This document shows positions 4,693 through 7,026 of a stretch of DNA of 64,000 nt, piece after piece. Numbering within the stretch: the stretch's first letter is position 1; each line of letters begins with the position of its first letter. The DNA is from an uncultured Bacteroidota bacterium. GTDB taxonomy: Bacteria > Bacteroidota > Bacteroidia > AKYH767-A > 2013-40CM-41-45. The notes beneath the pieces are model-generated. The model had not been told where the DNA came from and did not search any database. It was given only the letters and a program-made list of their open reading frames with translations. Position numbers and translations under genes: made by a program. Where the stretch lies: contig CALMQM010000072.1 in assembly GCA_937871435.1 (NCBI GenBank), positions 3,145-67,144 of the forward strand, read 5' to 3'.

Positions 4693-7026
4693 ATGAAAAA
4701 ACTCTTACTCCTCCTTGTATGTAGTCTATGGTTCACGCTGAAAGTTTCAGCGACTTGTTCTCCCGGATATTCGGAGATTATTGTAAGCATCGTTCCTGAT
4801 GCATTCCCTACTGACATTACCTGGACCCTCACTGATTCGAGTGGCACAGCTATCGCTTCCAACGGAGCGGTGGGTGATACGATTTGTATTCCAAGCGGAT
4901 CGTGTCACACCTTTACTATTTACGACAGCTTTGGTGACGGTTTCAATACTCCGGGTGGCTACTGGCTGTATGTTGATGGAAATCTGGTGGCCAATGGTGG
5001 CAACTTTGGATTCCAGGCAACCTATTCACTGAACTGCCCGGCAGGTATGCATTGTACCAGCGCGATTCCGATTACTGACGGCTCCTACTCTGCTCCATTT
5101 GATGACACCTGGTACTCTTATACACCGGCTGTTTCAGGCACCTACAACATTTCAACCTGTAACAACAATACTTGCGATACTAAAGTCTGGGTATACAGTA
5201 CTTGTCCTGCACAACCTTATGCGGAAGGTCCTCCCGGCTCATATGCTTACAATGATGACAACAATTGCGGTACACAGGCAAACCTGGATGTAATTTTTGT
5301 TGCCAACATTACTTATTTCATTCGCATCGGCGATAATATGGATCAATGCAGCGGACCAATTAATTTCGATCTGTCTTATGTCGGACCAATCTCAGGCTGT
5401 ATGGATCCCAATGCTTGCAATTACAATCCGGCTGCAACTGTTGACGATGGAAGTTGTATTTACAATGGTAACCCGGGATGTGCAGGTCCTGATTTACAAC
5501 TCGATTCTATTGCCTTCCTGAATAGTCTTGGTATCCAGTCACAAGTTGCCGGAACCTGCGATATCGACGAAGGTTGTGTCACCGGTTATGGTACCCGGTA
5601 TGTAATTTCTTTTACTTCCAAAATCAATAACATCGGTTCCCTCGATTTTTACATCGGAGATCCTTCTTCTAATCCCGGTATGTTCAACACAAACAATTGT
5701 CATGGACATGCACACTATGAAGGCTATGGCGATTACCGTCTGTTCGACAGTAACGGAAACCTTGTTCCTGCCGGACATAAAAACGGATTCTGTGTGATGG
5801 ATCTTTGCGGATTCGGTCAATACAATTGTGGTATGATGGGAATTTCTGTAGGTTGCTACGATGCTTACGGTGCAGGAACACAATGCCAGTGGCTGGATAT
5901 TACAGATGTTCCTGAAGGCGATTACCGTATCGCTGCCATTATCAACTCACATCACCTTCCGGATGCTATGGGCCATTATGAAACGAACTACCTGAATAAT
6001 GCTCTTCAGGTGTGTATGCATATCTCACGGAATGGCGGAGTACCCTCCTATACAATTCTTCCAAATTGTACCCCGTTTGTAGATTGCAGCGGAGTACCGG
6101 GTGGAACAGGTGAACTGGATTGCAGCGGAATCTGCAACGGTCCGGGTGTATATGGTGATGCATATTCTGATGGTACACTCAATGCCGGCGACGTAGATAC
6201 TTACATGGATATTATTCAATCCAATATGCCTCCATCCAGTTGTTATGACTTAAATGCGGATGGAGATATTTCGGTGATTGATGCTGCATCCATCAACTGG
6301 TGTATGCATGGTAGCAATTCACATCCCGGCGGCAGTTATCACAACCATTGCCACTTCCCAAGAAACATTGTGAATCCGAATGACCTGGTAGGTTTGTCTA
6401 TTGACAATATTAATTACACAGACAACTATGTTGACATTGCCATTTCCAATCCATCAGCTAAAATCAAAGCATATCAATTCACGATGAGCGGAATCAATAT
6501 CAGCAGCGTCGTGAGTCTTGCCGATCCTGTTTTATTCCCGCTTGATCTTCGTTTCATTCCGAGTACCAACGAAGTGATTGCGATCTCAATTGAAGATTCT
6601 GCTTTGGGACGTGCCAACAACCAATTGCTGGTGAGAATTTATTACAGCTCTGTAACAGATACTTCCATCTGTATTAGCTCCATCAAAGACCTGGTAAATC
6701 AGGATGCGGAACAAACAACTTTCTTCCTGGCAAACAACTGCAGACCTGCATTAAACACCGGCTTGGCTTCCATCTTTAAACCAGCGGATCTTGTAATTCT
6801 TCCGAATCCTGCCAATGATAAAGCTTTCCTGCATCTTTCTTCAGCAGACAAAGGAATTAAAGAAGTTGAGTTGACGGATGCATCCGGAAGAACGATTGCT
6901 GTTCCGGTTCAGTCTGTGCGCGAATTCTGGTATGAAATGGATCTTTCCTCATTGTCGGGTGGAGTTTACATTCTTACAGTTCGCTCTTCAGAAACGTACG
7001 GTGTAACACGATTCGTGAAACTCTGA
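4693..7026 (+). CDS. secreted multidomain protein with a lysyl-oxidase-like copper amine oxidase domain, dockerin-like repeats and a T9SS type A C-terminal sorting domain
   Basis: A signal peptide is present. The LOX-like core spans about 5488-6040: PDL...C-x-x-E-G-C..., NCHGHAHY (HxHxH), [10 protein letters not shown] and [25 protein letters not shown]. Dockerin-like DxDxD repeats ([16 protein letters not shown]) lie at about 6154-6300. The C-terminal [12 protein letters not shown]...GVYILTV... is a T9SS CTD. Confidence 0.85.
   Translation: [777 protein letters not shown]

Follow-up and report, generated by a model that had tools for sequence, protein, structure and literature searches.

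A predicted type IX-secreted lysyl oxidase homologue with conserved accessory modules in uncultured Bacteroidota

Introduction

The gene described here lies in a stretch of 64,000 nucleotides of contig CALMQM010000072.1 from an uncultured Bacteroidota bacterium; this whole stretch is called the window, and positions count from its first letter. The open reading frame (ORF) at 4693..7026 on the forward strand encodes a protein of 777 residues which, judged from its sequence, is a bacterial homologue of animal lysyl oxidase (LOX) with all of the catalytic residues in place. LOX domains were reported previously in Bacteroidetes and four other bacterial phyla, and prokaryotic LOX proteins were described as mostly single-domain (Grau-Bové et al., 2015; PMC4448552). 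The functions of bacterial LOX proteins have been termed enigmatic and their native role cryptic (PMC4448552, PMC6452851). The LOX family assignment and the presence of the family in Bacteroidetes are therefore already on record, and it is the conserved architecture around the catalytic domain that is undescribed in the papers searched.

Organization of the gene and its product

The protein is divided into an N-terminal signal peptide, two β-sandwich domains, a small Cys module, the catalytic domain, two further modules and a C-terminal type IX secretion system (T9SS) sorting domain. The boundaries and the basis of each assignment are as follows.

4693..4755, + strand: putative Sec-type signal peptide, residues 1-21 (inspection: KK n-region, hydrophobic core, VSA c-region)
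4756..5040, + strand: N1 β-sandwich, residues 22-116, with a D-S-[FY]-G-D-G motif and four conserved Cys (N-terminal model)
5041..5388, + strand: N2 β-sandwich, residues 117-232, with six conserved Cys (N-terminal model and fold search)
5389..5487, + strand: small 4-Cys module of 33 residues, residues 233-265 (conserved Cys)
5488..6063, + strand: lysyl oxidase catalytic domain, residues 266-457 (PF01186, LOXL2 profile alignment, Foldseek)
6064..6327, + strand: Cys-rich linker and dockerin-like Ca-loop/helix pair, residues 458-545 (profile hits, model helices)
6151-6312, + strand: dockerin-like core, residues 487-540
6355..6762, + strand: cohesin-like β-sandwich, residues ~555-690, with the conserved pair C660/C683 (model, predicted local distance difference test (pLDDT) 88-96)
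6799..7023, + strand: T9SS type A C-terminal sorting domain, residues 703-777 (PF18962 and TIGR04183)

The catalytic domain and the copper/LTQ site

An initial annotation of the window had aligned the central part of the protein with the catalytic domain of vertebrate LOX, and this assignment is borne out. The Pfam model PF01186 covers residues 298-440 (E=1.8e-23) and scores 83.7 bits where the cut-off is 20.4, and the single sequence matches human LOXL2 (5ze3) at E=6.4e-19. A profile of 70 orthologues reaches 5ze3 at E=1.7e-26, aligning LOXL2 residues 547-728, and 5ze3 is the only significant sequence match among solved structures. An AlphaFold2 model of the full protein was calculated from the family alignment (mean pLDDT 82.9). 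When this model was compared with the PDB using Foldseek, the top match was again 5ze3_A (E=1.4e-13, prob 1.00), and the superposition comprises 211 columns with a root-mean-square deviation (rmsd) of 3.7 Å and 30% identity.

The motif and codon positions of the initial annotation, including those for the lysine tyrosylquinone (LTQ) cofactor, were all reproduced by script. On the + strand they are the following.

5488-5496, + strand: PDL, residues 266-268
Residues 313-319, + strand: NIGSLDF, annotated as N-x-G-S-x-DF
5701-5715, + strand: His codons of C-H-G-H-A-H-Y, residues 336-342
5779-5781, + strand: codon of K363 in the LTQ lysine context, residues 361-370
5857-5859 and 5866-5868, + strand: codons of Y389 and Y392 in the LTQ tyrosine context, residues 387-411

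Two details required correction. The segment annotated as C-x-x-E-x-C reads C289-D-I-D-E-G-C295, which is C-x3-E-x-C and has the same spacing as CAAEENC in human LOX. Both tyrosines had been offered for the LTQ; Y392 is equivalent to LOXL2 Y689, whereas Y389 aligns with a Trp of LOXL2.

Residue roles and construct boundaries in LOXL2 numbering were taken from Zhang et al. 2018 (PMC5899467). In both sequence and profile alignments, the proposed HxHxH copper site H337/H339/H341 coincides with LOXL2 H626/H628/H630 (5ze3 chain positions 309, 311 and 313), and the proposed LTQ lysine K363 coincides with K653. The similarity extends beyond the active site. The Ca2+ site of LOXL2 (D549, L550, E722, D724, N727 and N728) corresponds to D267, L268, E430, N432, N435 and N436, with a single Asp-to-Asn change. 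C289, C295, C336, C367, C372, C379, C388 and C398 correspond to LOXL2 C573, C579, C625, C657, C663, C673, C685 and C695, and thus the cysteines of four LOXL2 disulfides (573/625, 579/695, 657/673 and 663/685) are kept as the pairs C289/C336, C295/C398, C367/C379 and C372/C388. Whether the fifth LOXL2 disulfide (C732-C746) has a counterpart is uncertain, since C441 falls one residue out of register in the alignment.

Conservation was assessed in 70 full-length orthologues with 48-83% identity. H337, H339, H341, K363 and Y392 are invariant in 70/70, as are the Ca2+-site residues. Six of the eight catalytic-domain cysteines are likewise invariant, and C372/C388 are at least 90% conserved. A more distant relative from the Global Ocean Sampling (GOS) data (see below) retains all three features: catalytic residues, Ca2+ site and disulfide framework. 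Because these residues are invariant or nearly so, a degenerate LOX domain is disfavoured, and the conservation pattern argues for an active enzyme.

Conserved modules around the catalytic domain

Upstream of the catalytic domain, the initial annotation had placed several Cys-rich FGDG modules. A single FGDG motif was found (residues 80-83), and the region instead consists of two β-sandwich domains and one small 4-Cys module. When residues 19-265 were modelled separately, the two sandwiches were predicted with a pLDDT of 91.4. The best PDB folds for this model were the ColG s3a-s3b tandem collagen-binding domains (5iku, E=1.8e-6), and it also resembles the PPC domain 5sv5 (TMt 0.52, rmsd 5.3) and the ColG collagen-binding domain 1nqj (TMt 0.60, rmsd 5.0). 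Identity in these PPC and collagen-binding-domain matches is 13-16%, and those to 5sv5 and 1nqj were not placed on N1 or N2 individually. At the sequence level, PF04151 (PPC) is absent from the window protein and from 16 family members at E<=1, and N1 has no Pfam match in the window protein. PF23759 (GBD_T9SS_assoc) is weakly matched in 5 of the 16 family members, with a best E of 0.0017 in N2. N1 and N2 are thus PPC-like in predicted fold only, a resemblance that does not imply collagen binding. At distant loci L037, L045 and L046, BLAST detects the N1 module at ~31% identity in neighbouring proteins of ~890 residues, which cluster with a Trypsin_2 protein of locus L034.

The four cysteines of the small module (C236, C242, C255 and C263) are invariant in the 70 orthologues, and no Pfam match was obtained for it. 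Its pattern GC[MT]DPxACNYNPxAxxDDGSC resembles residues 330-352 of mammalian MPEG1/perforin-2 at E about 0.2-0.5; this may reflect chance or a shared mini-module.

Dockerin-like Ca-binding repeats had been proposed downstream of the catalytic domain. The likeness is plausible, but membership of Dockerin_1 (PF00404) is not upheld, since the match reaches 11.4 bits (E=0.38), or 13.1 bits for the isolated region, below the cut-off of 22.9. For residues 458-545, the best PDB hits of the family profile are mostly dockerins at E=0.018-1.5 (2vn6_B, 0.018; CelS, 0.11), and 16 of 24 family members touch PF00404 at E<=1, the best at E=1e-4. The model contains helices at 498-509 and 528-540, each preceded by a loop. 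Loop 2 (D519-x-N-x-D-G-x-I-x-x-x-D530) is canonical, and loop 1 (D489...D500) lacks the position-3 ligand.

Matches to the full model include the cohesin-containing structures 3kcp_A, 4fl4 and 2w1n (prob 1.00, E 3e-6 to 2e-5), and cohesin entries are missing from the top 50 fold matches of the N-terminal model. These matches therefore map downstream of residue 265, and we infer from the model that the cohesin-like fold lies at residues ~555-690. Neither the Pfam scans nor the family profile run against the PDB gave a sequence-level match for this region. All 32 cysteines beyond the signal peptide, across modules and catalytic domain, are at least 90% conserved in the 70 orthologues, a pattern that fits a disulfide-rich extracellular protein.

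Signals for export

The predicted signal peptide forms a helix at residues 2-16 in the model, followed by a low-confidence stretch. A lipobox at this position is unlikely because the residue before the invariant C22 varies in the family (V, Q, T, S or A). At the other end of the protein, the sorting domain seen in the initial annotation is matched by PF18962 (34.7 bits against a cut-off of 27, residues 703-769) and by TIGR04183 (34.3 bits against 23, residues 703-776). Over the same C-terminal region, the family profile matches the solved structures 5jvk, 8glk_D, 7pzj and 8qb1, which we take to be T9SS sorting domains. Since the protein carries both a putative Sec signal peptide and a T9SS sorting domain of type A, it is predicted to be exported, as had been claimed. 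The annotation had placed it at the cell surface; a sorting domain alone would not separate surface display from release into the medium.

No T9SS machinery genes were found within the window. Six further genes with T9SS sorting domains occur there and provide indirect support for this route of export.

19425-20768, - strand: T9SS cargo with no recognisable domain except the sorting tail, adjoining the next gene
20795-21964, - strand: T9SS cargo with no recognisable domain except the sorting tail
33762-35567, + strand: T9SS cargo, pectate-lyase-fold protein
36416-40699, - strand: T9SS cargo, PKD/Ig protein of 1427 residues with a CHU_C (type B) signal
48844-51030, + strand: T9SS cargo, S8 subtilase
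52035-54041, - strand: T9SS cargo, M1 peptidase

Distribution of the family

At least 993 relatives were found in a collection of 5.8 billion proteins. The best 120 of these are nearly all full length (775-806 residues, mostly 775-793), are 47-83% identical to the window protein and carry PF01186 together with PF18962. Several relatives bear the NCBI names "lysyl oxidase family protein" or "T9SS type A sorting domain-containing protein". In an exhaustive HMMER search with the catalytic domain, 2376 representative clusters (50% identity) were recovered at E<=1e-3; 1302 of them reach <=1e-10 and 225 reach <=1e-30. Many of the top cluster hits are ~780-800 residues long with the LOX domain at about residue 270-290. 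Two statements of the initial annotation do not survive these counts. Prokaryotic LOX homologues are not rare, and the architecture that appeared unusual is the norm for a large Bacteroidota family, some members of which NCBI already names as LOX.

In a set of species-representative genomes, all of the 51 loci recovered lie in metagenome-assembled genomes (MAGs) of uncultured Bacteroidota, Bacteroidia or Flavobacteriales, many of them with river, lake or treatment-plant sample names. The window DNA itself matches MAG assembly GCA_046329995.1. At three of the related loci (L021:8001-10336, L022:2012-4506 and L026:8214-10339) the LOX orthologue is broken into two or three overlapping ORFs. Contigs of L021 and L026 have 'tig...' names, suggesting long-read assemblies, and the split ORFs are probably assembly frameshift errors and not pseudogenes.

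A second, more divergent subfamily (38-44% identity) is colinear with the window protein over the whole core of residues 21-689 and has in addition a MAM domain at the N terminus and further sequence at the C terminus. The MAM domain (PF00629, 73-80 bits) lies upstream of the N1-N2-LOX-dockerin/cohesin-like core in Flavobacteriales MAGs. Because this subfamily keeps the entire core, the module set is an old and co-inherited unit. On one strand, the MAM-LOX genes form arrays with genes for secreted M36 fungalysin, trypsin-like and Exo_endo_phos (endonuclease/phosphatase-family) enzymes; L037, L045 and L046, with the N1-bearing neighbours described above, belong to these loci.

L027:7779-11255, L034:7194-10841 and L042:3814-8334: MAM-LOX genes
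L027:11255-17111 and L034:10864-13554: examples of MAM-LOX neighbour genes

Comparison with known lysyl oxidases

Human LOXL2 and LOX share with the window protein a β-sandwich fold (Foldseek E=1.4e-13), colinearity from PDL to E-x-[DN]-Y-x-N-N, the HxHxH copper site, the LTQ Lys and Tyr, and secretion, at an identity of only ~31-33%. The accessory parts are unrelated. Animal enzymes carry SRCR domains or a propeptide, whereas the window protein has PPC-like, Cys-module, dockerin-like, cohesin-like and T9SS parts and a host with no known collagen or elastin substrate.

Among prokaryotes, archaeal HTU-LOX is an active, Cu-dependent amine oxidase sensitive to β-aminopropionitrile (BAPN), with a relaxed specificity that extends to many primary amines; its native role is described as cryptic (Pestov et al., 2019; PMC6452851). 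It shares PF01186, the His triad, the LTQ pair and an N-terminal signal or anchor sequence with the window protein. In contrast, it is 31% identical, single-domain and without a T9SS, and most of the animal-type cysteines kept by the window protein are missing from it. The LOX of Sphaerotilus natans has the architecture PPC-CHB_HEX_C-PPC-LOX (PMC4448552 File S7). As a secreted bacterial LOX with PPC-type sandwiches N-terminal to its catalytic domain, it provides a precedent for the N1/N2 fold, and its catalytic-domain identity is the highest among the named references (33.5%). Its PPC domains are recognised by Pfam, whereas the PPC likeness of the window protein is at the fold level only; it has fewer cysteines and no dockerin-like, cohesin-like or T9SS modules.

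A functional parallel is offered by LodA, an unrelated enzyme in fold and cofactor with no homology to LOX, which acts on free L-lysine. The LodA cofactor is cysteine tryptophylquinone, and its formation needs the partner flavoprotein LodB. LodA-like lysine-epsilon-oxidases, such as marinocine of Marinomonas mediterranea, are secreted, use a protein-derived quinone and release H2O2 from the epsilon-amine of lysine (PMC4417212, PMC3948610).

Environmental LOX sequences in the 2015 survey (PMC4448552) were truncated fragments in which only the Pfam LOX domain was seen. The dataset includes GOS fragments of the family described here; one of them, marine_metagenome_135033467, is 43% identical to residues 1-440 of the window protein and has the same N1-N2-Cys-module-LOX order, which places it in the same family. 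In the literature searched, no description of the flanking modules or of a link between LOX and T9SS was found, nor any relevant paper on lysyl oxidase with T9SS or Bacteroidota. A review of oral cancer that mentions both lysyl oxidase and T9SS appears unrelated by title and abstract, and papers on a cysteine-rich repeat and horizontal gene transfer that name lysyl oxidase concern an unrelated eukaryotic repeat. A search of the literature for characterised myxobacterial or Streptomyces LOX gave nothing relevant beyond the HTU-LOX paper.

Proposed mechanism and alternative roles

The protein is probably an active Cu/LTQ amine oxidase that is exported by Sec and then T9SS and acts outside the cell. 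The signal peptide recognised by inspection would take it to the periplasm, where the 32 cysteines of the mature protein, conserved and even in number, would form ~16 disulfides. By homology with LOXL2, the invariant H337, H339 and H341 would bind Cu(II), and in the presence of O2 Y392 and K363 would self-process to the LTQ cofactor. The type A C-terminal domain is expected, by analogy with other T9SS cargo, to direct export across T9SS and then to be removed, leaving the enzyme anchored on the cell surface or released. Outside the cell, the chemistry of the family would convert primary amines to aldehydes, NH3 and H2O2. The substrate may be a macromolecular protein located on the cell surface or close to it, whose lysine side chains would be modified or cross-linked. 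This preference for a macromolecular, lysine-bearing substrate over free small amines is the least certain step and is put forward tentatively, with some doubt. It is favoured because five non-catalytic modules (the two PPC/collagen-binding-like sandwiches, the Cys module, the dockerin-like pair and the cohesin-like sandwich) are conserved with the catalytic domain, even at ~40% identity. That such a site can work in a prokaryotic protein is indicated by HTU-LOX, which has the same triad and LTQ pair and is active and BAPN-sensitive (PMC6452851).

Several observations weigh against this proposal. Activity of a prokaryotic LOX has been demonstrated for archaeal HTU-LOX only, with no Bacteroidota example, and since HTU-LOX shows relaxed specificity for small amines (PMC6452851), the substrate may quite possibly be a small molecule. 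Support for the PPC, cohesin and dockerin assignments is at the fold level or below threshold, and sandwiches of this kind are generic in secreted bacterial enzymes and do not prove a protein substrate. Among the 51 loci no conserved neighbour hints at what the substrate or partner might be, gene order is no longer shared below ~67% identity, and the genes that recur nearby have housekeeping functions (RecN-like, FabI-like and CoaBC). Model confidence is lowest around the copper hairpin (pLDDT ~60 at residues 331-340). In the LOXL2 crystal structure 5ZE3, which captures the precursor state, K653 and Y689 are 16.6 Å apart (PMC5899467), and for this reason the geometry of His, Lys and Tyr in a static model is not decisive.

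The same chemistry could serve other ends. The H2O2 of a secreted oxidase might kill or inhibit competitors, prey or algae, or trigger biofilm dispersal, as for LodA. H2O2 is an obligatory product of the LOX reaction, antimicrobial quinone or flavin amino-acid oxidases are documented as secreted proteins of aquatic bacteria (PMC4417212, PMC4699246), the window encodes T9SS-exported S8 and M1 peptidases, and the MAM-LOX arrays with secreted peptidases and an endonuclease/phosphatase-family enzyme look like attack-and-digest sets. However, the gene is solitary among housekeeping genes in the window and in closer orthologues, no immunity, catalase or lodB-like partner gene was seen, and making H2O2 from soluble amines needs no elaborate binding modules; we regard such antagonism as unlikely. 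Nutrient scavenging, in which a broad-specificity oxidase frees ammonium from amines, polyamines or lysine-rich peptides, seems unlikely as well. A nitrogen supply from non-typical amines was suggested by the authors of the HTU-LOX study (PMC6452851), the hosts are freshwater, wastewater and other environmental Bacteroidota with many secreted peptidases, and six related loci carry a same-strand gene for a TonB-dependent receptor directly upstream. Yet linked ammonium- or aldehyde-handling genes were not found, the receptor linkage is limited to one sub-lineage and perhaps reflects mere relatedness, and the conserved multi-module scaffold favours a polymeric or surface target. A more specific form of the macromolecular reading is that a surface-tethered enzyme docks or self-assembles through its own dockerin- and cohesin-like modules and matures a matrix, cross-linking lysines of proteins held by the sandwiches, whether in bacterial extracellular matrix, sheath or floc or on prey or host surfaces. 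It is improbable as it stands, although modules and catalytic domain have been conserved together, as one block, in both subfamilies. If true, the cross-linking of extracellular matrix in animals would have a counterpart in prokaryotes, and T9SS cargo would use cohesin-dockerin assembly outside cellulosomes.

Two further alternatives concern what the domain is and where it came from. The abundance of β-sandwich and Ca-binding modules, typical of adhesins, and the absence of detectable activity of the native archaeal homologue in cells (PMC6452851) could suggest a T9SS adhesin whose LOX domain serves structure or adhesion and has no catalytic activity. This is very improbable, given that disulfide framework, Ca2+ site and catalytic residues vary little or not at all among orthologues down to 48% identity and that the catalytic residues persist in the GOS relative, which is the mark of selection for catalysis. 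That the gene was recently taken up from an animal or another eukaryote by horizontal transfer is scarcely credible. It was addressed by pairwise comparison with six reference LOX sequences instead of a full phylogeny. The catalytic domain keeps more animal-type cysteines than the other prokaryotic references, HTU-LOX and Sphaerotilus LOX, in which this pattern is partly lost, and members of the related subfamily carry in addition a MAM domain, a type familiar chiefly from extracellular proteins of animals. Identity to human LOX (31.6%) and LOXL2 (33%), however, does not exceed that to the Sphaerotilus (33.5%), Acanthamoeba (32%) or archaeal (HTU-LOX, 31%) enzymes. A recent transfer is also rejected on composition, because the G+C content at third codon positions is normal (0.41, against 0.34-0.44 for the genes of the window). 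The gene is old in Bacteroidota because the full-length architecture is common to hundreds of sequences and two deep subfamilies, and on sequence grounds nothing supports a recent animal-to-bacterium transfer.

The gene alone overturns nothing. Its interest lies in a conserved, undescribed architecture and in the role of bacterial LOX proteins, for which this family is a well-defined case with hundreds of orthologues, a fully conserved Cu/LTQ site and a clear export route. It also has an animal-type disulfide and Ca2+ framework and a fixed set of putative binding modules; the modules are expected to point to the substrate, and one characterised member would tell protein cross-linking, H2O2 production and nitrogen harvest apart. 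A bacterial, disulfide-rich and otherwise animal-like LOX is also potentially useful for structural work on the mature LTQ state, which is absent from the LOXL2 crystal structure.

Candidate transcription signals and neighbouring genes

The LOX gene is solitary, divergent from an upstream gene for a coiled-coil protein and convergent with a downstream gene for phosphoenolpyruvate (PEP) synthase. Two candidate transcription signals flank it.

4638..4683, + strand: promoter-like block CATTTT..N..TAT[A/C]TT..CTCTAACCC (alignment with L001, L002 and L021)
7049..7076, no strand assigned: 12-bp GC-rich hairpin with T-runs on both strands, AAAGGCGCAGGATTCCTCCCGCGCCTTTTTTT (terminator scan: 12 pairs, 7 G-C)

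Across the 583-bp intergenic region upstream of the gene (4111-4692), the block at 4638-4683 alone is well conserved when compared with the three syntenic relatives. It appears to resemble the Bacteroidetes -33 TTTG / -7 TAnnTTTG promoter; a scan with the sigma-70 consensus gave nothing specific there. The hairpin is likely a bidirectional intrinsic terminator shared by the convergent LOX and PEP-synthase genes. For cis-regulatory RNA, Rfam gave nothing at the gathering threshold in the whole window, and 4050-4750 yielded chance-level hits only.

Within the upstream region, a stretch of ~390 bp (4200-4590) that contains an ORF of 114 residues (4233-4577) is present in L021 and missing from the syntenic L001 and L002. 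This stretch looks like an indel and not a conserved gene, and the small ORF is probably no gene, as the stretch is absent from L001 and L002.

Neighbours were compared by tblastn of the window's neighbouring genes against the 51 related loci and by all-against-all clustering of flanking ORFs. Synteny is kept only in the three closest genomes (81-83% identity), and neither a conserved operon partner nor a gene for substrate or maturation emerged. In addition to the housekeeping genes, TPR-repeat, propeller-repeat and TonB-receptor proteins recur as neighbours. The TonB-dependent receptor (Plug, β-barrel and CarboxypepD_reg) lies directly upstream on the same strand at L003:5466-7904 and in the equivalent position in L004, L005, L006, L020 and L026, all of one sub-lineage. 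This linkage may simply follow from common descent, or it may point to a connection with uptake, for instance of copper or a reaction product.

Elsewhere in the window, the gene at 9788-13168 on the - strand encodes a fused protein of 1126 residues with B12-binding, MeaB GTPase and methylmalonyl-CoA-mutase-type parts, similar to IcmF. It is 94% identical in L002, compared with 81% for the neighbouring LOX gene.

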